Shown: piece by piece, positions 2,748-34,829 of the stretch | Layout: every line of letters starts with the position of its first letter | Numbering within the stretch: the first letter of the stretch is position 1 | NCBI GenBank assembly: GCA_032718475.1 | Contig: JAUCBJ010001846.1 | Span: 62,001 to 126,000 of the forward strand | Source: Nemertoderma westbladi | Taxonomy: Eukaryota; Animalia; Xenacoelomorpha | Direction of reading: 5' to 3' | Length of the DNA stretch: 64,000 bases | Notes under the pieces: model-generated | The model's input: only the letters and a program-made list of their open reading frames with translations | What the model was told of the DNA's origin: nothing | Database searches by the model: none | Position numbers and translations under genes: made by a program

Positions 2748-2821
2748 AACAAGACTGAAAACAGGATCAAGGGGGTGTTGAGGAGGAGGGGTGTGTTATA
2801 AAGTTTAAGGGTGAAAAATAG

Positions 2822-2890
2822 TGACATTGATTTTGGAAATTATTTTTCATTTCTATTGTCATTTTTTTTCAAAATGAGTGTTAACTGAAT
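2822..2890 (+). repeat. 69-bp partial copy of the MITE-like element at 29100-29269 (right part)
   Basis: TGACATTGATTTTGGAAA...GAGTGTTAACTGAAT matches 29200-29268 at 67/69. Confidence 0.9.
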
Positions 2891-2921
2891 GAAATATAAA
2901 ATTAACTTGTCACTCAACCTG

Positions 2922-3788
2922 TCATCCTACATCCACCAAAGCCCCAAAAATACTCTCTAAATCCAGACTTAAAGATTCAATTGGACGAATCAGCATGGCA
3001 AAATACGTTTGCCAAAGAATCACACCTGCCACGCCTTGCATATTAAAACTAATGACATAGCCTGCAATCAGTGTTACAAACATCAATAAGTAGACAGGCA
3101 ATGTCAGCATAAAGTTTTCTCTTGCATTCTTTATCATCTTCAATGCGATGGTTTCATACCATTTAGGTAGATGCTCAGAGAGATGTGTTTGTTTAAGGGT
3201 TTGAATGGATTGTTCTGTTTCTTTTTCGGCTAAGTTATTCCATTGTGTTCTATTGTATTTATATTTGCCTTTTATAAAAAAGCTATAGCCCAGTACAAAC
3301 ACGACACTAAAGATACAAAGCAAAGTGATAGATAGATTGATGGTAATGCTTAAAAATATAAGGGCTAATATAATTTGCAAACATGTTCCCAATATTAAGG
3401 TAGAAGATTCTGTAAAGATTGATATATAAGCCTGTCTTGTTCTTTCAAATGTTTCAATCGCATGGTCTTTATTGATTGAATGCTTTTGCGTAGCCTGAAT
3501 GCTCTGATAAGAAAAAAGTCTTGATCCATAAATATTGAGGTAAGTTGTAACTGCATGCATTGCAATGTTGAAGATGCCAAATATAGCGGTAATGCTTAAC
3601 ATCAATATCACGCTTTTTAAAACTTCTGGTGAGGTGCTGTTGGCATCTAAAAAGAGTTGGTAAATTCCTAAAGGAAATATCATGGAAACTAAAGAAGTAC
3701 ATACAAGAAGCGTTAAGAATACATAACTTAACTTTTTAGGCAAAGTTTTAAATGCTTGTTGTAGAGTTTTGATATAAAGCTTAAACAT
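2922..3788 (-). CDS. ABC exporter transmembrane domain (lasso D-like), no nucleotide-binding domain, possibly truncated
   Basis: About 6 hydrophobic segments; ends LIRPIESLS...ALVDVG, where ABC membrane domains join the NBD; no Walker A. Confidence 0.65.
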   Translation of the reverse strand: MFKLYIKTLQQAFKTLPKKLSYVFLTLLVCTSLVSMIFPLGIYQLFLDANSTSPEVLKSVILMLSITAIFGIFNIAMHAVTTYLNIYGSRLFSYQSIQATQKHSINKDHAIETFERTRQAYISIFTESSTLILGTCLQIILALIFLSITINLSITLLCIFSVVFVLGYSFFIKGKYKYNRTQWNNLAEKETEQSIQTLKQTHLSEHLPKWYETIALKMIKNARENFMLTLPVYLLMFVTLIAGYVISFNMQGVAGVILWQTYFAMLIRPIESLSLDLESIFGALVDVG

Positions 3789-5679
3789 CTTTTAAAGTTT
3801 CTTTCACTTTGGGGCTTGTGTAGTTGGGGTGGGAGAGTTTCAGTTTGGTGGCTTTATCGTTTTTTATAAAACGAAGCCAGCTTTCTGCTATTAGTTGATT
3901 ATGCAAATAACCTGTTCGCAAAGAAGCTGGATAGCCCTTGATTCTTGAAGAGGAAAGTTCCGAATATAGAAGCTTTAGAAATTCTTTTGGCTCTACCATA
4001 TTAAATTGATACAACATGGATGCAGAAGGATTGTTGGTAAAAATATCTAATAACTTTTGACTGTCATTTCTAATCATATGAACCATCATCTCGCCATAAG
4101 ATGTTTTAAATTTTTTAGTTCTAATAGATTCAGGCATAATATTTGAGAAACTGTGTCTTTGAATTTGTTTTTCTCTTGCATATTCTTCATAAAAAGAAAT
4201 ATCTTCGTGATAAGCAATATCATAAAGAAAGTGCTGAGCAATGGAATCAAAAAATTCAATAATACGTGCATCTAGCAACGGTGTTTTGTATGGAATCATA
4301 GAACTAAAAGCATCATGAAAATAAGAAGGATACTCTTCTAAAAATAAATGTCTTTGTCTATGAGTTAGTGTTGGTTCTTTTATCCATTTGCTTTGATTCA
4401 GCAATATTTTAAAAAAAGAACTAAGATTTACTTTGCCTGATACATTGTGTTCATACATGAAAGCATTGGGAATGAAAGTTAATTTGTTTCCTAAATAAAT
4501 CAGCAAACTTAAATAGAAGGACTTAAAAGAACTATTGCCAAGTTTTTGAATCACTTTAGATATACTTGCAAAACCTTTTTGCTGCATCAAATCATCTAAG
4601 CAATATTGACTACCTTCAGTTACATAATCGCCTTCACCACTCCATATAGAATGACAACCTAATTGTACAGCTAAGTTTTCTATAATTTCTTGCCAAAAAG
4701 GAAGACTCGTTGTAGCGGGTGTATCAATTCTTCTCCATGCGTCATTTGAAGATAGGCCATGAATATGAAGTAGCTTAGAACATTCAATAGGATAAAACTG
4801 GCAAGCTGTTTGATCAGCACACTGTTTAGCTAAGCCTAAGTCGTTGGTGTTGTGAAATACAGGATCACTAAAATACATGCTAAGTGCATAATTAGATTGC
4901 TTTTTATTGGCATAAATTGCACTAGCCACGGTTGCAGAATCTAAACCTCCGCTTATTTCAATCAGTTTTTTAGATGAATCTTGTGTTGTAACGACATTTT
5001 TCATCAAGTCTTCAAACGATTCACAGGCTTCTTTGAAAGATAACTTAGTTAAATCATTAGGATAATTGGAGTAATTAGAATAAGTTTTGTGCTCAATATC
5101 TAAAATCTGTTTCTTCAGATGAAAGCTAATACATGTGCCGCTACCCAAAAGCCTGACATTTTTTAAGCAGGTATCATGAAAAGATTCTGAAATATTATTT
5201 TGAAAAGAAAGCCACTGTTGTAAGCGTTGAGCATCTACCTCTAATTCAAAATTAGGAATCAGAAGTAAAATTCTTGAATCCGTTGTAATGTAATGGTTAT
5301 TGTGAAGCGATACCACATAAAGAGGAGGGCTTGTATAAAACGATGAAATAATTAAAAACTGATTGCCTGTATAAGCTGTGGCAATATAGATGCCTGCAAT
5401 ATCTTTTCTTGCCTCATTGTAGTTATTTTTCCATCTATCATTCCATAGCTGTTTATCTATTATTGGGTTTTCAAGATTCATGTATTGATCATTAAAAGTA
5501 CAAAAGCCTTGCCCTAAAAAGTTGGCATTTAGTTTTTGATATTGGTGTCTAAAGATTGCTTTCTTAACAATGCCTGCATCTTGTAAAAAGGATTTAAAAT
5601 CATTTCCAAGCCACTCTTTGCAAGACAAATACCATTGTTTAATCAACGCTTCTTTTTTTCCAATTCCAATCATCAACAT
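3781..5679 (-). CDS. Lasso peptide cyclase (asparagine-synthetase-like, C protein)
   Basis: EISGGLDSATV PP-loop, WSGEGD, TPLLDARIIEF; 632 aa; no N-terminal Cys of true AsnB; adjacent to B2, RRE and precursor. Confidence 0.9.
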   Translation of the reverse strand: MLMIGIGKKEALIKQWYLSCKEWLGNDFKSFLQDAGIVKKAIFRHQYQKLNANFLGQGFCTFNDQYMNLENPIIDKQLWNDRWKNNYNEARKDIAGIYIATAYTGNQFLIISSFYTSPPLYVVSLHNNHYITTDSRILLLIPNFELEVDAQRLQQWLSFQNNISESFHDTCLKNVRLLGSGTCISFHLKKQILDIEHKTYSNYSNYPNDLTKLSFKEACESFEDLMKNVVTTQDSSKKLIEISGGLDSATVASAIYANKKQSNYALSMYFSDPVFHNTNDLGLAKQCADQTACQFYPIECSKLLHIHGLSSNDAWRRIDTPATTSLPFWQEIIENLAVQLGCHSIWSGEGDYVTEGSQYCLDDLMQQKGFASISKVIQKLGNSSFKSFYLSLLIYLGNKLTFIPNAFMYEHNVSGKVNLSSFFKILLNQSKWIKEPTLTHRQRHLFLEEYPSYFHDAFSSMIPYKTPLLDARIIEFFDSIAQHFLYDIAYHEDISFYEEYAREKQIQRHSFSNIMPESIRTKKFKTSYGEMMVHMIRNDSQKLLDIFTNNPSASMLYQFNMVEPKEFLKLLYSELSSSRIKGYPASLRTGYLHNQLIAESWLRFIKNDKATKLKLSHPNYTSPKVKETLKDV

Positions 5680-5684
5680 GGTAT

Positions 5685-6152
5685 TTACAATAATACTTGA
5701 TGGAGGTTATCCTGAAGGTAGTTTTCTTTTTTGATGACAGTTAATCCCCTTATTTGATTGAATATGTCTATTTGTTGTAAAGATTTTTTGGTTTGATACT
5801 CTAACCAAGCATGTTGAATAATTTTACCACCCGCTCCATCTTTTGCTACTGCGTAAACAACATAGGACTTAAAACCAAATACCCCGCAATACAAATGAAA
5901 AGCAACAGAGGCAGTTAAACAAGTTAATGCTATATTATTGTTTTCATAATTGCTTGCTACAAGTTTTCGTAAACGATTGAGCTTTTTATGGAACAAAAAG
6001 CTGATGGGTTCTTGTGGATGGAATGTGGTATCAATGTAACTGCATTGCCGACAACATTTTAAAATCGCTTTATCTGTAGTTTTAGATTCATTGAGGTTTG
6101 ATAAAAAACTAGCATGTAAGAGCTTAAAAAGTAATAAATCTTTTTTCATCAA
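5685..6152 (-). CDS. Lasso leader peptidase (B2, transglutaminase-like)
   Basis: TCLTASVA ... QHAWLEY Cys/His motifs typical of lasso B2; 155 aa. Confidence 0.88.
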   Translation of the reverse strand: MMKKDLLLFKLLHASFLSNLNESKTTDKAILKCCRQCSYIDTTFHPQEPISFLFHKKLNRLRKLVASNYENNNIALTCLTASVAFHLYCGVFGFKSYVVYAVAKDGAGGKIIQHAWLEYQTKKSLQQIDIFNQIRGLTVIKKENYLQDNLHQVLL

Positions 6153-6952
6153 AGGTTAAAGTCTGCATGTAAAGCAAATGCCCAACTGTTTGCATGAAAA
6201 CTAAATTGTTTTTTATGTTGATCTAACACATAGTGAGCACTTAAATGGCTACTTTCTATTTTTTCAATAATATTGCCTTGGCGCTTATTTTCTGCCTTTG
6301 AAATACAGCTATTAAGTAAAAGTACTTCTGCATGATGTTTTAAGGCTGTGTTTTGAAGAAATCTTATGTATTTTTGATATTTAGAATATGCATTTTTTAC
6401 AGAATAATCTCTAAAAAACAAATCAGGTAAGGCTATTAAAATACCTTTGTTATTAAGAACAGATGGAATCTTTCTAAGATAAGAAGTAATGTCATAACAA
6501 AAGATCAAATTGATTCCAAAAAATGAAGCATATTGAATCCATCTTTTTTCCAAAACGGGCATCCAACTTCTTCTATAAATTAAAATTTCAATCTGATCTT
6601 CTCTTTTTAAACGTAAATTAAAAACCAAGGAGAATATATAAGGTAATAGAAACTTACCATGAGCTGATATAACAATAAAAGGTTGATTCCATTTCTCTAC
6701 ATCGACTTCTATAAAATTTTGGAAATACTTTGCAAAAGCAATATGTTGTGAACAACATAAATAATCATAGTATACCCTCATGTTGTTGATATAACCTTTT
6801 TCCAAAAGCAACCTTTGGGCTTTAGGCAAGGTAAATCTCAAAACAAAATTATGCAGATACGCTAAAGCAGTATGAAGACATCTTTTATAAAAGGAGGTAT
6901 AAAAACTTCTTAAAAATAAATGAAGATGTAAAGACTCTACACAAGCCTTCAT
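6149..6952 (-). CDS. Divergent lipid-A/lysophospholipid acyltransferase-like protein (LpxL/HtrB-like)
   Basis: FIVISAHG, NKGILIALPD and C-terminal NSWAFALH follow the LpxL motif order; the acidic residue of HxxxxD/E is not evident. Confidence 0.55.
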   Translation of the reverse strand: MKACVESLHLHLFLRSFYTSFYKRCLHTALAYLHNFVLRFTLPKAQRLLLEKGYINNMRVYYDYLCCSQHIAFAKYFQNFIEVDVEKWNQPFIVISAHGKFLLPYIFSLVFNLRLKREDQIEILIYRRSWMPVLEKRWIQYASFFGINLIFCYDITSYLRKIPSVLNNKGILIALPDLFFRDYSVKNAYSKYQKYIRFLQNTALKHHAEVLLLNSCISKAENKRQGNIIEKIESSHLSAHYVLDQHKKQFSFHANSWAFALHADFNL

Positions 6953-7530
6953 GTTTGACTATAAAAAGCTACTTTTTCATCTTCTATTGTATAACCCATA
7001 TTTTTTAGAGCACTTCGGGCAATAGCAAATGCCTTTTTAAGAGGCATGTGGGTTAGCATCTCAAATAGAAGCAGCGTAAACAATAAAGTAGAGTTGCCAT
7101 CGGGGTAACGAGGAAAGCCAATATAGTTTTTAGTTTTATGTTCTAACCAAACATCTGCCCAAGTTTGAGTACCTGTCATACAAGCAGTAGAAAGTATCAA
7201 TTGACATTTGCTTTTGTTTGGATGTTGTGAAAGTAAAGTTTCAAGTTGTTGAGTTTGAATGAGATTATTCTCAAACTTGTACTTTAAGGGCACAGATTCG
7301 TGGACTTCAGGTAAAGAAAAACCTGCGTTGTCTTGCGAATCACTGTCTCCATGCCCGTCAATAATCAGGTAAGGGGTTTTAGGTGTTTTTGTAATATGTT
7401 TTACAAAATCATCAGCGCTTCCGATATAGTGCATCAATACTTCGTAACATAAATATTCTAAAGATGATCGTATAGCTTGAGTGGACAATGAATCACTGAT
7501 GCAAAAAATGGTTACTTTTTTGTTTTTCAC
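6949..7530 (-). CDS. Stand-alone caspase/CHAT-like (clan CD) cysteine protease
   Basis: YLIIDGHG and LILSTACMTG, i.e. His-Gly and Ala-Cys dyad motifs each after a hydrophobic strand; GTG start. Confidence 0.65.
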   Translation of the reverse strand: MKNKKVTIFCISDSLSTQAIRSSLEYLCYEVLMHYIGSADDFVKHITKTPKTPYLIIDGHGDSDSQDNAGFSLPEVHESVPLKYKFENNLIQTQQLETLLSQHPNKSKCQLILSTACMTGTQTWADVWLEHKTKNYIGFPRYPDGNSTLLFTLLLFEMLTHMPLKKAFAIARSALKNMGYTIEDEKVAFYSQT

Positions 7531-7804
7531 AAAGATTGTGTTTTTGAATTAAACCAACCTCTATTAAATCATCAATAGCCAATTGTAAATAGTTTTTAGA
7601 TGAATGTTTAGAATCGGTTACTATTTCTATTGATTCAGCTATATTTGAAAGTTCGTTTAATGTAAGTTTTTTGTTTTCTAAAATTTTTTGAACAATAAAC
7701 GTGTGAACTTCTGAAAGCTCCAATATTTCTTCGTCTTTGTGTACCACCATGTTGTTGTCTAAAACAACATGGTGCATACCACAATAAGCGTAAGCTTCTT
7801 TCAT
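7493..7804 (-). CDS. RiPP recognition element (PqqD-like, lasso B1)
   Basis: About 100 aa; LELSEVHTFIVQKI...LAIDDLIEVGLI PqqD-like pattern; directly downstream of the precursor. Confidence 0.75.
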   Translation of the reverse strand: MKEAYAYCGMHHVVLDNNMVVHKDEEILELSEVHTFIVQKILENKKLTLNELSNIAESIEIVTDSKHSSKNYLQLAIDDLIEVGLIQKHNLCEKQKSNHFLHQ

Positions 7805-7809
7805 ATAAG

Positions 7810-7974
7810 CTAACTACCGCCACCGATACTGATAGTGCCTGTATTAAAACCGGAGCCACCACCTTTAGAGCCTCTCGGACGTGTTCCGTCACCCGGTTTA
7901 TTCTTTGTTCTCTGCGTTGCAATAGCAATATCTCCATGTTTCTTAATAGGAACATAATTTAATTTTTTCTTCAT
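7810..7974 (-). CDS. Lasso peptide precursor, 54 aa: leader MKKKLNYVPIKKHGDIAIATQ + RTKNKPGDGTRPRGSKGGGSGFNTGTISIGGGS
   Basis: SD GGAGG at 7980-7984; leader has Y-x-P...G-x5-T-x with Thr at -2; Asp at core position 8; first gene of the cluster. Confidence 0.9.
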   Translation of the reverse strand: MKKKLNYVPIKKHGDIAIATQRTKNKPGDGTRPRGSKGGGSGFNTGTISIGGGS

Positions 7975-8560
7975 AAATACCTCCACAGATTTCAAAATAA
8001 GATTTTAACTTAATAAACTCCCTTATTTCAAGATACTTTTAATAAATCTACATGTTGTAAATTCTTAAAAATCATATCCCCACGCAAATAAAGCAGTATA
8101 AAAATGAATTTAGATACCAAATATGAAGCAGGATTTTTTTGCTTATTCCAGAAAAAAGCAGGGATAATCTCATCTTTAACATGGCCTTTGTTATTGAGTG
8201 CATCCCCTACCAGCAGTAATCTTTTAATCAAGAACAGACATATGAATGAAGTTGCCAGAACGCTAATATCTGTTCATTTTGATGAACAACGATACTTGAA
8301 TCCAACTTAACATGTATAGAATCGACAAATTGATAAACACACATTTGGGCTTAAAAGTAGCCCCATGAAACTATCTTTCCCCTTATTAATTGGTTGCTGA
8401 CACTATTTAACCTCCAAGTAACACCCATTTTTCTCAATTTGATTCTCCGTTTGATTCACATTCCATCATTTTCTTGAGGGTTAATGAATTAGATGTGTTG
8501 GTTGTTTTTGTGAATGCTTATGACCTATTCTTTAAACAAAACTTGATTCAACACCATTAG

Positions 8561-8755
8561 TTAAAGACATTGCGCATTACTTGGATTTGAAAGTATATAA
8601 GCAGTTTCTTCATAAGATTGAAAATCTTCAAGGCTCATTACAACAGCAGTTTTCTTGTTTTGACGAGTAATCAAAATGGGCTGATGATCATCACTGACTT
8701 TGTCTAGGTTTTTTGCTAATTGATCTCGGAATGAAGAGTAAGTAATCGTTTCCAT
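8561..8755 (-). pseudogene. yefM: Phd/YefM antitoxin, C-terminally shortened, orphan (no toxin gene)
   Basis: METITYSSFRDQLA...ITRQNKKTAVVMSLEDFQSYEETAY; 64 aa vs ~83 typical; start lies 17 bp from the island junction. Confidence 0.8.
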
Positions 8756-8772
8756 ATAAAATTTGGTTTAAT

Positions 8773-9270
8773 AATGATTGTGCCTTAATGATTCGATTAA
8801 TGCAGAGTTTATGCGCATCGAACATGTCCCAACTTTTACACTGGAACCAGTATGCGCTGGCTATTTTAGGTAACCAAGAGGCCTATGACGAGTCTAGAAA
8901 AATGGGTCAAGCCTTGCTGATGCTGGCCAAAAAACTGGGTATTCAGTTGCCTGCTAAACCTGTTGACACACCCATCAGTTATGTCGTTTCTTATTGTTTG
9001 GTGGGGCATGCTTGGGGTATTTCCACCAACGACCTTATTTTAACCTATTTGTGGGGGTGGTTAGAAAACCAACTATCTGGGGCCATGCGCTTACTACCCA
9101 TTGGCCATTATGAAACACAAAAAATAATGTTAGCAGCTGATCAAACAATCAGTGCCTCCACACAGTTGGCCAAAAAAGTGCGCGATGACCAAATGGGGAA
9201 AAGCCTGCCGTTTTTTGAGCTATTATGTGCACAACACCAAACCCAATATACGCGTTTATTTCAATCTTAA
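8773..9270 (+). pseudogene. ureF: 5'-truncated duplicate of ureF (first 57 codons missing)
   Basis: Identical to 211-708 and cut at the junction. Confidence 0.92.
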
Positions 9271-9281
9271 AAGGAGGTATG

Positions 9282-9887
9282 ATGAAAAAAAGCCCATTTC
9301 GAATTGGTATCGGGGGGCCTGTTGGTTCAGGCAAAACAGCATTGATTCAACAATTGTGTATGAATATGAAAGACACCTATCAAATGGCCGTTGTGACCAA
9401 CGACATTTACACCCAAGAAGATGCCCAATTTTTAGCCAAACACCAAGCACTAGAAGCGGACCGAATTGTGGGGGTTGAAACAGGCGGGTGTCCACACACG
9501 GCTATTCGGGAAGATGCCTCCGCTAATTTAATGGCCATTGAAGGTTTGGAAAAACGCTTCGATAACCTAGATTTAATCATTGTTGAATCAGGGGGCGATA
9601 ATTTAAGTGCCACCTTTAGCCCCGATTTGGCTGATATGACCTTGTATGTTATTGATGTTTGCGCGGGTGATAAAATACCTCGAAAAGGAGGTCCAGGCAT
9701 TACCCGCTCTGATTTGCTGATCATCAACAAAATGGATTTAGCCCCCTATGTGGGCGCATCGCTGGCGATGATGAAAAAAGATTCAACAAGGATGCGAGGC
9801 GATAAACCCTTTGTATTCACCAACTTAAAAACACAACAAAATGTAAACCAAGTGATTGACTACATTCAAACCAACATGGTGCTGTAG
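9282..9887 (+). CDS. ureG: UreG (copy 2)
   Basis: Translation identical to copy 1. Confidence 0.95.
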
Positions 9888-9918
9888 GCGACAGTACATT
9901 GATTAAGTGTTACCGTTT

Positions 9919-10899
9919 TCAGTCAATTAATTGATCAACTAAGTTTAACAAGGTTTGCTGCTCGTCTTGATCCAACATGCTACCTGAAAGTATTTGGTCA
10001 ACCGCCTTGCGCCAATTTTGTAAATATTGTTGGGCTTGAGAAAGGGCAGTTGTTTGGTGAAAATGACTTAAAATTAACCGAATTTGGCTATCATCACGTT
10101 TTTTAATGTAGCTTTCTACCTGTGTCTTCAGTGTGCTGGATGCCTGCATACCTAAAATTAGTGGCAAGGTGATTTTCCCTTCCACTAAATCGTGACCAGA
10201 AGGTTTGCCTAGCACATGATCTGACGACTGATAATCCAACAGATCATCAGATAATTGAAAAATCATGCCCACATAATAGCCATAGCGTGAAAAAATCGTA
10301 CATATCTCAGGGCTTGCGCTATGAGTATGGCAAACAATTTTGCCGATTAACTCAAACAAGCTGGCTGTTTTTTTCTCAATGATTTTTAAATAATCATTGA
10401 TTGATAAATCAATATTAAATGCCAAGCGCATTTGGCTGACCTCACCTTCAGCCAATACACTCATACAATGAGAAAACTCATACCCAAGACTTGGGTCATC
10501 GGCAACCAACATCAAGGCGCGGGCGGATAAAAAATCACCCGCCAAAATACTCAATGTATTGCCCCAAACATGACGTACACTGGGTTGGTGACGCCTAAAT
10601 TCAGCTTGATCGATCACATCATCATGCAGTAAAGTCGCCATGTGAATCATTTCAATTGCCGCGGCTTGTTTAAAGTCTGTCTGCACATTTGTTACATCTT
10701 TTTTTGGGTGTGTTGTCATGATTTGATCAAGCATCATCCATACAAGTGGACGAATCATTTTGCCCTGACGTGCTAAATAATAATGAATAATCTCAGCTAG
10801 CAGCGGCTCATCACTTTGAAAACAAGTGGAAAAATAGGTCTTAAACTGCTTAAAACGTTCAGCAATTTGGGTATGTTGAGCGAATATTTTTTCAAACAT
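9919..10899 (-). CDS. ispB: Polyprenyl diphosphate synthase (copy 2)
   Basis: Translation identical to copy 1. Confidence 0.9.
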   Translation of the reverse strand: MFEKIFAQHTQIAERFKQFKTYFSTCFQSDEPLLAEIIHYYLARQGKMIRPLVWMMLDQIMTTHPKKDVTNVQTDFKQAAAIEMIHMATLLHDDVIDQAEFRRHQPSVRHVWGNTLSILAGDFLSARALMLVADDPSLGYEFSHCMSVLAEGEVSQMRLAFNIDLSINDYLKIIEKKTASLFELIGKIVCHTHSASPEICTIFSRYGYYVGMIFQLSDDLLDYQSSDHVLGKPSGHDLVEGKITLPLILGMQASSTLKTQVESYIKKRDDSQIRLILSHFHQTTALSQAQQYLQNWRKAVDQILSGSMLDQDEQQTLLNLVDQLID

Positions 10900-10910
10900 G
10901 CCTGCTTTGA

Positions 10911-12284
10911 TTACTGAACACAACTCACCACCCGTCCAACAATAATCAAAAGTGGAGACTGTAGGCGTATATTCCCCACCCAAGCCTCGGCTTTTTTCAA
11001 TTGTGTTTTATAAATCTGTTGATCGGCTGTGGTACCTTTGACAATAAAAGCCATGGGGGTATCTAGTGGCATACCGTGGTCTTTTAAATTTTTAATACAA
11101 ATATCTAAACTAGCTTTTCCCATGAAAAATACCAATGTTTTAAACGGATCAATTACCTTTTCCCATGGCACTTGATAGGCGAGCTTGCCCGAACCATCGC
11201 CATGTAGGGTTAAAAACTCAACCGAATGGGCACAGTCGCGATGCGTTAGGGGAATGTTGGCATAAGACGCACAGCCATTGGCCGCACTGACCCCTGGGAC
11301 AATGCTAAAGGGAATGCTGTGATCGGCTAAATGCGTAATTTCCTCACCCCCCCGACCAAAAACAAATGGGTCACCCCCTTTTAATCGAACCACATGCTTG
11401 CCTGCTTGGTAATGTTCAACCATCAGATCACAAATAACCGATTGTGGAACACTTTTGCCATAGCCGCGTTTACCCACCGCAACTAACTGAGCATCTCGCC
11501 TTACAAATTCTAAAACGCCCTGACCGATTAGTTGATCATGCAACAACACATCAGCACGTCTCATCAATCGACAAGCTTTGAGTGTTAAAAGCTCAGGGTC
11601 GCCTGGCCCTGCACCCACAATTGAGACACTGCCTGTATGATGTTGACGATTATTAAACTGTTTTAAGCAAGTGTTGGCATGGGCTAACATGGCTTGATGG
11701 GTTTGATAATTCAACAATTGATCTAATTGGTCATCCAGCAAGTATTGCCAAAAACGTTTTTTGGTTTCATCCAAACGCATTTTTTGAACCAAAGGGCGTA
11801 GGGTGTCAACCACCTCAATTAACTGGGTATAAGTTTTGGGCAGTTGTTGGAGTAGGTGTTTGCGAATGCCAGCACTGAGCATGGGGGCTTTGGTGCTGCT
11901 ACTGATGGCAATTAAAAGGGGGCTGCGATCAATCACAGACGGGACAACCGCACTACAAAAATTGGGCTGGTCAACTACATTTACCAAACAGTTTGTTTGA
12001 CTTGCTTGATGATAAATTTGTTGATTAATCAAGGGGTCATCGGTTGCAGCAATCACCAAGAACTGATCCTCTAAATCACATAGGTCATAACATCGTTTGA
12101 CTAAAAATAATCGGTGGGTTTGATCGTCCAGTGTCTTAATTTCAGGTAAAATTTCGGGGGCAACAACTGTTAGTATCACACCGGCTTGATAAAGGCGTTT
12201 TGCTTTTTGAAACGCAATTTTTCCCCCACCCACAATTAAACACTTTTTTTGATGCAGGTCTAAAAAAAGGGGGTACAAACTCAT
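10911..12284 (-). CDS. cysG: Siroheme synthase (multifunctional CysG)
   Basis: YPLFLDL..IVGGG dehydrogenase domain; VGAGPGDPELLTLKA and RLKGGDPFVFGRGGEE methyltransferase motifs. Confidence 0.97.
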   Translation of the reverse strand: MSLYPLFLDLHQKKCLIVGGGKIAFQKAKRLYQAGVILTVVAPEILPEIKTLDDQTHRLFLVKRCYDLCDLEDQFLVIAATDDPLINQQIYHQASQTNCLVNVVDQPNFCSAVVPSVIDRSPLLIAISSSTKAPMLSAGIRKHLLQQLPKTYTQLIEVVDTLRPLVQKMRLDETKKRFWQYLLDDQLDQLLNYQTHQAMLAHANTCLKQFNNRQHHTGSVSIVGAGPGDPELLTLKACRLMRRADVLLHDQLIGQGVLEFVRRDAQLVAVGKRGYGKSVPQSVICDLMVEHYQAGKHVVRLKGGDPFVFGRGGEEITHLADHSIPFSIVPGVSAANGCASYANIPLTHRDCAHSVEFLTLHGDGSGKLAYQVPWEKVIDPFKTLVFFMGKASLDICIKNLKDHGMPLDTPMAFIVKGTTADQQIYKTQLKKAEAWVGNIRLQSPLLIIVGRVVSCVQ

Positions 12285-33800: not shown

Positions 33801-34829
33801 TCAAGTCGCATGCAACACCAAATTTTTCTCAAACTCATTCAAACGCTTCCAAATGCTTCTAAGCTCGGTGATGGTTGTCCAATTATGTAAAAAAAGTGAA
33901 AAACTGCCATGCACTTTTTGAAAGGCATTGCTTACTTGCACCACCACCCCTAGCTGAATCAGCCCTGTAAACAAACTAGAGCCCACAAATAAATACGGCA
34001 CAATCATCATGAACTGATCATAAAAATTCAACCACAAATCAAAGTACCCATAATGCAAATAAAGCCGCTGATAATTAAACCGAATGCCTAAAAAAAGCTC
34101 CTTTAAGGTTTCAGGCTTGGCATAATTGATTTTATCATCCTCGCCTAGTACCAAATCTTTACGAAATGCAGCCTCAACTTTTTGGTTGTTATATTCCAAA
34201 CCGGGTAAATACCACCCCACCAACCATGAAATTAAAAGCCCACCAAGGGATACTACCAAAGCTACCCAAACCAGTGAACCATCCGCGACTTTAAGCCAAC
34301 TTAAGCCCACACTCGTGCTCAAGTTCCACAAAATCGGTAAAAAGGCCACCAAAGTCATAATGGCTCGAACAATTTGTAAGCCTAATGATTCCACAATGCG
34401 GGCAAAACGATTGCAGTCTTCTTGAATACGTTGGCTTGCGCCTTCAATTTCAGCCGTTACATTACGCCAGCGGGGAATATAGTCAAAGGTGATGGCCTCG
34501 CGCCAACGAAGACCATATATACGCGTAAACCAGCCTGTTAAAGTGGCTAAAATTACATAGGGGAAGGCCACAACCGAAAACGAGGGGTCGCCTTCAAGCC
34601 CATTGTATAAATAACTTAAAGATAGCAGGTGATCAAAAAAAAGCGTGATGCCTACCTGTGGATCATTCACATAATTGCCCGCATTTTGAAGCAAGTTATA
34701 AAACCTTCCATACCACTGGTTAATCGCTACTGTCATTTGCACCTGTAGCCACAACGACCCTAATAAAAGTAGCGCCCCACCCCATGCCCACATGGCCCAA
34801 TGCTTCGTCCAGAAAAATGCTTTAATCAT
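33801..34829 (-). CDS. SbmA/BacA-like peptide transporter
   Basis: AINQWYGRFYNLLQ, IEGASQRIQED, NNQKVEAAFRKDLVLGED and WTTITELRSIWKRL motifs. Confidence 0.88.
   Translation of the reverse strand: MIKAFFWTKHWAMWAWGGALLLLGSLWLQVQMTVAINQWYGRFYNLLQNAGNYVNDPQVGITLFFDHLLSLSYLYNGLEGDPSFSVVAFPYVILATLTGWFTRIYGLRWREAITFDYIPRWRNVTAEIEGASQRIQEDCNRFARIVESLGLQIVRAIMTLVAFLPILWNLSTSVGLSWLKVADGSLVWVALVVSLGGLLISWLVGWYLPGLEYNNQKVEAAFRKDLVLGEDDKINYAKPETLKELFLGIRFNYQRLYLHYGYFDLWLNFYDQFMMIVPYLFVGSSLFTGLIQLGVVVQVSNAFQKVHGSFSLFLHNWTTITELRSIWKRLNEFEKNLVLHAT

Follow-up and report, generated by a model that had tools for sequence, protein, structure and literature searches.

The 193-residue protein encoded at 6949..7530 of the window (X193; the window is the whole 64,000-nucleotide stretch of DNA analysed) is a stand-alone, signal-less domain of clan CD, CHAT-like in character, and no homologue of the C11 peptidases or of their members LrcF and GelP. 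Its gene belongs to an operon that is a very divergent example of the triculamin/lariocidin type of lasso peptide operon. The features of this operon, all on one strand, are as follows.

8002..8031, minus strand: promoter-like sequence TTGAAA-18-TAAAAT, immediately ahead of the precursor gene (10/12 in a consensus scan; a pattern match only)
7810..7974, minus strand: precursor gene A, 54 residues plus stop by translation, with the core starting at Arg22
7493..7804, minus strand: B1-like gene, an open reading frame of 103 residues in the RRE position, its putative RRE identity drawn from size and position
6949..7530, minus strand: X193, CHAT-like (clan CD) cysteine peptidase domain, 193 residues from a GTG start in the list of open reading frames
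6149..6952, minus strand: X267, orphan protein of 267 residues (open reading frame), sharing ATGA with the end of the X193 gene and 4 bases with the beginning of B2
5685..6152, minus strand: B2 leader peptidase, transglutaminase-like, 155 residues (Transglut_core3 and NCBIfam lasso B2 matches)
3781..5679, minus strand: lasso cyclase C, asparagine synthase-like, 632 residues (Asn_synthase match at E 7.6e-7, passing the Pfam cut-off)
2922..3788, minus strand: polytopic membrane protein of 288 residues in the exporter position, with 5-6 hydrophobic segments

The seven genes run in the order precursor, B1-like gene, X193, X267, B2, cyclase and membrane protein, and all seven reading frames are open. 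The cyclase resembles that of a lariocidin-like cluster at 22% identity over residues 106-618 (pairwise E 2e-25; tblastn E 5e-16). For comparison we used an annotated lariocidin-like cluster on Bacillus wiedmannii plasmid p536 (locus L018), which encodes a Peptidase_C11 enzyme. The B2 protein matches Transglut_core3 (E 5.1e-5) and the NCBIfam lasso B2 model (E 1.5e-4), in both cases under the respective cut-offs, and its HAW-E motif aligns with that of the p536 B2 (E 0.088). A role for X193 as a second leader peptidase was considered and dropped, a B2 with this motif being already present. The B1-like protein has no PqqD match at E ≤ 1 and no BLASTP similarity to the p536 PqqD protein. The membrane protein shows no nucleotide-binding domain and no ABC family match in Pfam or NCBIfam, nor any similarity to the two p536 ABC transporters.

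The initial annotation placed X193 between B1 and B2. That position holds, but X193 is not alone there, since X267 occupies the same interval, with an overlap of 4 bases at either end. X267 has no match in Pfam, NCBIfam or the PDB and no word-index homologue, and its single-sequence fold, made without an alignment, reaches a pLDDT of 41. As a lead, the Atlas places it near clusters resembling lipid A acyltransferases (score 0.92), where the family is found on 29% of members. The Atlas clusters nearest to X267, also a lead only, consist of unnamed proteins of 250-288 residues and are commonest in Acidobacteriota. The island as a whole is low in GC, with X193 and X267 no different from the rest (0.29-0.36), and is bounded by a perfect 2537-bp repeat; no GNAT gene was found in it with Pfam or NCBIfam. 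Upstream of the operon there are a B1-like fragment (8228..8344) and a gene for an antitoxin that lacks its toxin (8561..8755). One DNA sequencing run contains the region, and no RNA run is listed for it.

The motifs IIDGHG (residues 56-61) and LILSTACMTG (residues 111-120) had been taken as signs of a caspase/CHAT-like His-Cys dyad. Read from the sequence, His60 is encoded at 7351-7353 and Cys117 at 7180-7182. A phmmer search against 1.84 billion representatives retrieved 90 relatives at E ≤ 1e-3, nine of them at E ≤ 1e-10 and the best at 3.2e-25. When X193 was aligned with 69 of these, E25, H60, G61 and C117 proved to be invariant in all 70 sequences, with R21, G37 and G120 nearly so. Such conservation shows the motifs to be real rather than a matter of chance. 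The relatives are 103-216 residues long, with a single exception of 886, and the entire X193 model aligns to one domain, both of which bear out the description of the protein as standing alone. X193 has no hydrophobic segment, and in the model the first strand is already in place at residues 5-11.

X193 gives no match to the CHAT family (PF12770) at E ≤ 1, none to PDB sequences at E ≤ 10, none in PADLOC and none in a word-index homologue search. Within the family, seven of the 70 members match PF12770 weakly, with a best E of 0.0039. A match of X193 to NACHT in Pfam is at chance level only. The relatives constitute a family of minimal CHAT proteins of ~180 residues, 90 representative clusters in all, for which Pfam has no model.

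The AF2 model (pLDDT 91.9, pTM 0.90) has as its top structural match the CHAT domain of SAVED-CHAT (8tl0), with a Foldseek E of 4.5e-9; in VIA, 175 of the 193 residues superpose on that domain with Z 17.5-17.6 and an rmsd of 2.9-3.0. Lower VIA scores are seen for DdvA (Z 13.9-14.2), Csx29 (13.0-13.6) and caspases (about 12). In a wide structure search, ranks 1-24 are all occupied by clan CD proteins or a caspase-like c-FLIP domain, with Z falling from 17.5 to 10.9. The entries listed below 8tl0 in this search are DdvA, separases, Csx29, caspases, MALT1, gingipains, legumain, the ligase OaAEP1, GPI transamidase and C11 enzymes. H60 and C117 are located near the ends of successive model strands (54-58 and 111-114), and a PDB profile search aligns the two catalytic residues with those of the 8tl0 CHAT domain (E 0.021) and caspase-1 (E 0.19), both matches being below threshold. 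Flavodoxin-like and CheY-like folds were rejected, such matches having TMq of 0.33-0.44 or Z below 9.3. The predicted fold of X193 is thus the caspase-hemoglobinase fold, closest to the CHAT domain. With the register of the His and Cys, this agrees with the initial annotation, which had named the lack of such a fold as evidence against itself.

The closest comparison in terms of pathway is with LrcF and GelP. The additional peptidase that the initial annotation ascribed to the lariocidin cluster is LrcF, a clostripain-family peptidase described in PMC11451635 as required for lariocidin B and C. As reported in PMC11451635 and PMC13178200, LrcF and GelP are C11 members of clan CD which cut peptides of this family at Arg/Lys17-Gly18 and join residue 17 to Lys2, position 2 being that of the ring Lys in lariocidin B (PMC11451635) and in gelatinamin A (PMC13178200). 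X193 is like them in being a clan CD His-Cys enzyme encoded in a lasso cluster of triculamin/lariocidin type, but the suggested comparison with LrcF holds at the level of the clan and no further. X193 gives no match to Peptidase_C11 (PF03415) at E ≤ 1, where the p536 enzyme scores E 2.3e-39; BLASTP finds no significant similarity between the two (E 1.9); and C11 (clostripain) structures match the X193 model with Z of 10.6 or lower. The enzymes differ in size too, with 193 residues in X193 against 425 in the p536 enzyme and ~48 kDa in GelP. GelP is a secreted or lipoprotein enzyme active outside the membrane, according to PMC13178200, and the p536 enzyme has a hydrophobic, signal-like start, whereas X193 has neither signal nor lipoprotein leader. 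Finally, C11 genes follow the transporters while that of X193 lies between B1 and B2.

The precursor has a leader of 21 residues with Thr at -2, and its gene a strong ribosome-binding site, GGAGG 5-9 nt before the ATG at 7974. The core is basic and triculamin/lariocidin-like, with Asp at core position 8 and the PGDG motif known from precursors of this type (PMC12070363). It is matched by the NCBIfam lario_core model with an E of 0.0071, below the cut-off, and the curated cut-offs of NF050022 and NF050021 are likewise not reached (16.7 bits against 27 and 15.7 bits against 40). Identity to the two B. wiedmannii precursors is 46% and 39%. Shared with these p536 sequences are the Thr at -2, a Gly located five positions beyond Asp8, and the run KPGDGTR, which is invariant in the alignment. 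Beyond the core there is a Gly/Ser-rich C-terminal extension of about 15 residues. The tail of 15 residues noted initially is borne out in two ways: the lariocidin core model stops at residue 46 of the 61-residue open reading frame, that is at core residue 18, and the B. wiedmannii precursors are shorter at the C-terminus by 14-15 residues.

The follower of triculamin is comparable to this extension, since both come after the PGDG core and are absent from the expected mature peptide. Triculamin precursors are, however, leaderless and paired with a truncated cyclase, whereas here there are a leader, a Gly/Ser-rich extension and a full-length cyclase. According to a preprint (bioRxiv 10.64898/2026.07.03.736388), the triculamin follower is predicted with AlphaFold3 to be a helix and binds the truncated cyclase; its removal is seemingly non-specific and due to the host, with no dedicated enzyme known.

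From the operon position of X193, the extended precursor and analogy with these systems, we tentatively propose, at rather less than even confidence, that X193 removes the C-terminal extension, perhaps after Lys16. B2 would first remove the leader and C would close the ring between Arg1 and Asp8. X193, acting in the cytoplasm, would then capture the tail as a thioester directly beneath the ring, our preferred candidate being Lys16, whose neighbour is Gly17; the initial annotation had proposed R13, K16 or an Asn as possible cut sites. The precursor contains the Lys16-Gly17 pair in its tail together with Lys3 and Lys5 in its ring, and a Lys16-Gly17 site would mirror the Lys/Arg17-Gly18 of GelP and LrcF, which likewise cut the tail between a basic residue and a Gly. 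Formation of the thioester would release the Gly/Ser-rich follower, a predicted leaving group of ~17 residues compared with the Gly or Gly-Leu released by LrcF and GelP. Resolution by water would yield a 16-residue lasso; attack by ring Lys3 or Lys5 is the less likely outcome. Indeed, we consider it quite improbable that X193 is a follower-releasing cytoplasmic transpeptidase which, from a Lys16 thioester and with expulsion of a 17-residue follower, passes the acyl group to Lys3 or Lys5. Alternatively, the tail may stay on the mature peptide, which would then just be a long lasso.

Several observations bear on this proposal. The overlaps of the X193 gene with its neighbours (38 bases with the B1-like gene, ATGA with X267), the 4-nt overlap between X267 and B2, and the promoter-like site ahead support a role in the pathway. 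At the β1-α1 junction X193 has an acidic residue, D13, and the family is acidic at position 12 in 36 of 70 members, at 13 in 23 and at 16 in 57. By analogy with the pockets of caspases and metacaspases, an acidic residue here would suit a basic P1. A complex prediction for X193 with precursor residues 22-54, run without alignment and without controls, scored 0.00, which counts neither for nor against it. One argument against the proposal is that X193 lacks the export signal of GelP and the p536 C11 enzyme, so that a peptide aimed at ribosomes would be matured within the producer, whose cluster has no GNAT.

X193 might instead protect the producer, inactivating in the cytoplasm, in place of a GNAT, lasso peptide that is retained or re-enters. 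The absence of both a GNAT from the island and a signal peptide from X193 would fit, as would GNAT-based self-resistance in producers of triculamin, gelatinamin and lariocidin, documented in PMC13178200 and PMC12070363. The genomic context of relatives could be read in the same way. In six of the 17 loci of X193 family members (16 from metagenome-assembled genomes, found by a locus scan with a five-sequence sub-alignment of a distant branch, and one Priestia plasmid), genes of detoxification type occur within three open reading frames: a GNAT in L001, MatE in L002, alpha/beta hydrolase and MBL-fold genes in L003, MBL-fold genes in L004, alpha/beta hydrolase genes in L005, and GNAT, glyoxalase and alpha/beta hydrolase genes in L017. 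These neighbouring families are very common, however, which makes six of 17 weak evidence. Threaded lasso peptides, moreover, are generally resistant to proteases, and between B1 and B2, with overlapping frames, is a strange place for an enzyme whose task is to degrade the product. We regard protection of this kind as rather improbable.

It is unlikely, too, that X193 and X267 are a passenger, a cassette of protease plus partner with a function in, for example, conflict or regulation and no relation to the peptide, though the family contexts do lend this something. None of the same 17 loci, all from distant branches, contains lasso genes or a relative of X267, which counts against the proposed tail removal. 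In favour of a passenger, X193 family members otherwise occur in unrelated contexts, some of them beside recombinases and relaxases (L009, L010, L015). X193 and X267 are also adjacent orphans, and the unnamed Acidobacteriota-rich clusters nearest to X267 would, as a lead only, point the same way. Nevertheless, an insertion that preserved 4-base overlaps on both sides and kept B2 and C translationally linked is hard to credit if recent, the lack of any X267 relative beside the 17 family members speaks against a passenger pair, and the GC of the two genes equals that of the remaining island. The cluster is, however, possibly decaying: its membrane protein has no ATPase domain, there is a B1-like remnant upstream, and B1, B2 and the precursor all fall below curated cut-offs. 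Add to this the lone antitoxin gene, the low GC and the flanking repeat, and X193 might be a component of a decaying or incomplete cluster with no current role. To this we give a slight chance, given that all seven frames are open, that X193 keeps every invariant residue of its family and that the precursor retains Thr-2, PGDG and the strong ribosome-binding site.

Searches for further clusters of this kind were negative. The closest relatives of X193 are two metagenome proteins, P0001 and P0002, grouped with it with a support of 96 in a quick tree. Locus scans found nothing with X193 in genome_contigs, with X193, P0001 and P0002 in metagenome_contigs, or with a family sub-alignment in viral_contigs; the cyclase likewise gave nothing in the metagenome_contigs scan and has no word-index homologue at E ≤ 1e-5. 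No second copy of the X193 lasso cluster was thus found with X193 or the cyclase in the word-index, genome_contigs and metagenome_contigs searches, which also tells against the proposed tail removal.

Among other known systems, the CHAT relatives (SAVED-CHAT, which is type III CRISPR-associated, DdvA, the TPR-CHAT protein Csx29 and separase) carry sensor or repeat domains and function in signalling and defence, while X193 is the bare domain, at 14-15% identity to this group. Legumain-type ligases (OaAEP1, butelase type) and the GPI transamidase subunit have the fold in common with X193 (Z 11.7 and 10.9). They show that in clan CD an amine can take the place of water in resolving the acyl-enzyme, while a propeptide is lost from the C-terminus. 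These enzymes are, however, eukaryotic, secretory, Asn/Asp-specific and much larger, and bear no sequence similarity to X193. We found no paper that connects CHAT domains with RiPPs or with lasso peptides, and the terms 'caspase', 'clan CD' and 'legumain' are absent from the text of a 2023 review of RiPP proteases.

Lasso peptides of the lariocidin type are antibiotics that target the ribosome. To reach the doubly cyclised (class V) form they need a transpeptidase of clan CD, so far known only from the C11 family. If X193 does remove the extension, tail processing in the lariocidin-type family would have been invented more than once, and the protein would be a compact candidate tool for trimming or cyclising peptides at the C-terminus as well as the first biochemical handle on the ~180-residue minimal CHAT family. 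Were the transpeptidase reaction to prove true as well, X193 would represent a convergent, non-C11 route to the reaction of LrcF and GelP, by which a Gram-negative organism makes a class V-like lasso shaped as a figure of eight. To our knowledge no other CHAT-type enzyme is on record in natural-product biosynthesis, so X193 would then be the first, and it might be the smallest peptide cyclase of clan CD.

The protein that the initial annotation placed at 6949..7530, with IIDGHG and LILSTACMTG motifs, is confirmed: the ORF listing holds there a frame of 193 aa (X193) carrying both, inside a putative lasso operon.

Genes of the putative lasso operon
7974..7810, minus strand: precursor, 54 aa
7804..7493, minus strand: B1-like gene, 103 aa
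7530..6949, minus strand: X193, 193 aa, GTG start
6952..6149, minus strand: orphan X267, 267 aa
6152..5685, minus strand: B2, 155 aa
5679..3781, minus strand: cyclase, 632 aa
3788..2922, minus strand: membrane protein, 288 aa

The motifs span residues 56-61 and 111-120, and the codons of His60 and Cys117, the catalytic pair, lie at 7351-7353 and 7180-7182. Searched alone, X193 matches no Pfam family beyond a chance-level NACHT match (E 0.064), no NCBIfam or PADLOC model and no PDB chain at E ≤ 10, and a word-index search found no homologues. When 1.84 billion representative proteins were searched exhaustively with phmmer, 90 relatives scored E ≤ 1e-3; nine of these reached E ≤ 1e-10, none reached E ≤ 1e-30, and the metagenome protein P0001 came first (38% identity, E 3.2e-25). 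With few exceptions the relatives stand alone, at about 170-215 aa in length. We aligned X193 with 69 of the 90, having left out by eye 21 that were fragments, multi-stretch matches or length outliers. E25, H60, G61 and C117 are invariant across the 70 sequences, and R21, G37 and G120 nearly so. Scanned singly, seven of the 70 give weak Pfam CHAT matches (best E 0.0039) and one a Peptidase_C14 match (E 0.085); this is thus a family without a curated model. All ten members looked up come from metagenome collections, as singletons or pairs; two carry the name 'hypothetical protein' and the others none. In a quick maximum-likelihood tree X193, P0001 and a second metagenome protein, P0002, form one clade (SH-aLRT 96), with Ser at position 16 where 57 of the 70 have Glu.

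An AlphaFold2 model built with the 70-sequence alignment (pLDDT 91.9, pTM 0.90) alternates strands with helices and places His60 and Cys117 directly after strands 54-58 and 111-114. The caspase/CHAT-type fold anticipated for it is borne out, a CHAT structure, 8tl0, being the best match in all three structural comparisons. In Foldseek against the PDB the top five rows are chains of this SAVED-CHAT filament (E 4.5e-9 to 1.7e-8, TMq 0.67-0.71), followed by MALT1, Csx29/TPR-CHAT, caspases and DdvA; matches near E 1e-4 include Rossmann-like enzymes and receiver domains, whose TMq is just 0.33-0.44. VIA-align on the Foldseek candidates gives Z 17.6 for 8tl0_C (rmsd 3.0 over 175 residues), 14.2 for DdvA, 13.8 for RgpB, 13.6 each for separase and Csx29, and about 12 for caspases. 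A wide search run independently over 48,161 chains reproduces the order, with 8tl0 at Z 17.5, legumain at 11.8, the ligase OaAEP1 at 11.7, GPI transamidase at 10.9, clostripain 9cip at 10.6 and other C11 enzymes at 10.4, 10.3 and 8.8. The family profile run against PDB sequences yields sub-threshold matches alone (CHAT 8tl0, E 0.021; caspase-1 chains, E 0.19-1.6), in which its GHG and AC columns align with the same columns of 8tl0 and caspase-1. On the strength of the fold searches and this register, the modelled X193 is best described as a bare clan CD domain, nearest to CHAT and akin to C11 at clan level only. Its hydropathy profile is free of hydrophobic segments, and the first strand begins at residue 5; lacking a signal peptide, X193 is predicted to be cytoplasmic.

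The operon is tightly packed around it: the B1-like gene overlaps X193 by 38 bases, the X193 stop and X267 start share ATGA, and X267 and B2 overlap by four bases. A promoter-like site (8031..8002, minus strand, 10/12 to consensus) precedes the precursor, and GGAGG lies 5-9 bases upstream of its ATG at 7974. The predicted cluster is very divergent. The cyclase exceeds the Pfam Asn_synthase cut-off (E 7.6e-7), B2 falls under cut-off (Transglut_core3, E 5.1e-5; NCBIfam lasso B2, E 1.5e-4), and the B1-like protein has no PqqD match in Pfam or NCBIfam scans. The membrane protein in the exporter position (2922-3788, minus strand, 288 aa) has five or six hydrophobic segments; Pfam and NCBIfam give it no nucleotide-binding domain or ABC family. 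X267, translationally coupled to both X193 and B2, matches nothing in Pfam, NCBIfam or the PDB and has no word-index homologue. The protein atlas clusters nearest to it consist of proteins without a name, 250-288 aa long and most frequent in Acidobacteriota, and one atlas lead, scoring 0.92, points to a lipid A acyltransferase-like cluster whose family is assigned on 29% of its members. If an acyltransferase, X267 could replace the absent GNAT.

The operon occupies a 6025-bp island (2748-8772; GC 0.33 vs 0.42) flanked by a perfect direct repeat of 2537 bp (211-2747 and 8773-11309) holding part of ureF, ureG, ispB and the 3' part of cysG; ureF is whole on the left only and cysG on the right only. 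Such a layout is what would result if a circle that bore the 2537-bp segment had integrated by a single crossover. The one sequencing run that contains the region, possibly that of the source sample, has unitig depths of 32 on one flank and 37 on the other, 49 across the island and 87.5 in the repeat. These depths fit a tandem array of about 1.4 units, and likewise an 8.56-kb circle accompanying a chromosome that lacks the island; the junction unitigs extend just 30 letters into the repeat. Upstream of the precursor, a 38-aa ORF (8228-8344, minus strand) resembles by eye the N-terminal part of the B1-like protein and is apparently what is left of a second B1 copy. The island's right edge carries a Phd/YefM antitoxin gene (8561-8755, minus strand, 64 aa, Pfam E 1e-21) with no toxin gene beside it. 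In the same part of the chromosome, some 17 kb away from dnaA-dnaN-recF-gyrB, is a homologue of SbmA/BacA-like peptide-antibiotic transporters (33801-34829, minus strand; NF009036, E 3e-139; SbmA model, E 8e-85).

For comparison, tblastn of the cyclase against plasmids gave one record, Bacillus wiedmannii p536 (E 5e-16); pairwise, the two cyclases are 22% identical over residues 106-618 (E 2e-25). The p536 locus, on a 536-kb plasmid, is annotated with a GNAT, a PqqD protein, lasso B2, an asparagine synthase-related protein, two ABC transporters and a clostripain-related cysteine peptidase, the last being Peptidase_C11 (E 2.3e-39) with a hydrophobic, signal-like N-terminal stretch. Ahead of PqqD, B2, cyclase, ABC transporters and peptidase, five precursor ORFs lie in tandem (5033-5820) and share a KPGDG core; two core variants differ in their end residues. 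The membrane protein of the window resembles neither ABC transporter. Gene set, KPGDG ORFs and Peptidase_C11 together mark this as a lariocidin/gelatinamin-type cluster.

The window's precursor is 46% and 39% identical to two of the p536 precursors, with K, P, G, D, G, T, R, a later G and Thr at -2 invariant. Its core starts at Arg1 (precursor residue 22) and has Lys3 and Lys5 in the ring, Pro6-Gly7-Asp8-Gly9 with Asp8 as ring-closing residue, and Arg11, Arg13, Gly14, Lys16 and Gly17 in the tail; a Gly/Ser-rich stretch free of basic residues then runs to Ser33. Positions 4-19 of the 19 in the NCBIfam lariocidin/triculamin core model match residues 31-46 of a longer 61-aa ORF (16.7 bits, under the cut-off of 27), so the conventional core ends at core residue 18. 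The 15-aa tail previously proposed is thus real, the precursor running 14-15 residues past those of p536. As described in PMC12070363 and bioRxiv 10.64898/2026.07.03.736388, canonical triculamin-like precursors have a leader only and non-canonical ones a follower only; this precursor, unlike either, has a leader and a C-terminal extension.

The peptidases known from such clusters act at the tail. According to PMC11451635, lariocidin LrcF is of the clostripain family, its deletion leaves only lariocidin A, and lariocidin B lacks Gly18 and has Arg17 joined to Lys2. PMC13178200 describes gelatinamin GelP as a C11-like enzyme of about 48 kDa that is predicted to bear a lipoprotein signal and that interconverts gelatinamins B and A in vitro by Lys17/Lys2 transpeptidation with glycine as leaving group; Arg13, Gly14 and Val15 thread the gelatinamin A ring, and Arg13-Gly14 is retained in the window's core. 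In triculamin, cyclisation needs the follower, whose removal by the host is seemingly non-specific (bioRxiv 10.64898/2026.07.03.736388). X193 differs from LrcF and GelP in belonging to another clan CD family, in being less than half their size and predicted cytoplasmic, in its place within the core operon and in the long leaving group of its presumed substrate. Searching the literature for links between CHAT and lasso peptides or RiPPs turned up unrelated papers only, judged by listings, and caspase, clan CD and legumain are all absent from the text of a RiPP protease review.

Other roles were weighed against the loci of 17 readable relatives, all distant: 16 MAG loci from a five-sequence sub-alignment (Saprospiraceae, Lachnospiraceae, Oscillospiraceae and other Clostridia) and a Priestia filamentosa plasmid. 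By Pfam scan of 85 neighbouring ORFs, tblastn and annotation, none of the 17 has a lasso gene or X267 relative nearby; neighbours vary by locus and none is conserved. It is unlikely that X193 and X267 are passengers, a protease-plus-partner cassette. Detoxification-type genes (GNAT, glyoxalase, MatE, alpha/beta hydrolase, MBL fold) lie within three ORFs in six of the 17 by raw count (L001-L005 and L017), and the window's island has no GNAT, both of which would fit a part for X193 in guarding the producer; we consider this distinctly unlikely. Recombinase or relaxase genes stand beside the relatives in three other loci (L009, L010, L015). That the lasso cluster is itself a leftover seems highly improbable, albeit consistent with an exporter-position protein that has neither ATPase domain nor similarity to the p536 transporters, with the B1-like fragment upstream, and with the lack of any comparable cluster in locus scans of genome and metagenome contigs or a word-index cyclase search.

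Tail processing is the reading we favour, tentatively. B2 would remove the leader and the cyclase close Arg1-Asp8; X193 would then attack a tail bond just below the ring, releasing the extension, its acyl-enzyme being resolved by water or a ring lysine. The latter outcome, transpeptidation, we regard as quite improbable. Lys16-Gly17 would be the favoured site, as the sole basic-then-Gly site past the threading residues and as a counterpart of Lys/Arg17-Gly18, where GelP and LrcF act. Acidic residues are common in the X193 family at the β1-α1 junction, which by comparison with caspase and metacaspase structures would form the P1 pocket, and D13 of X193 would suit a basic P1. The proposed chemistry is an analogy. 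With its clan CD domain, intact dyad, absence of an export signal, overlapping frames in a lasso operon and a precursor bearing an extra tail, X193 may, with somewhat less than an even chance overall, act in processing the tail of the lasso precursor.
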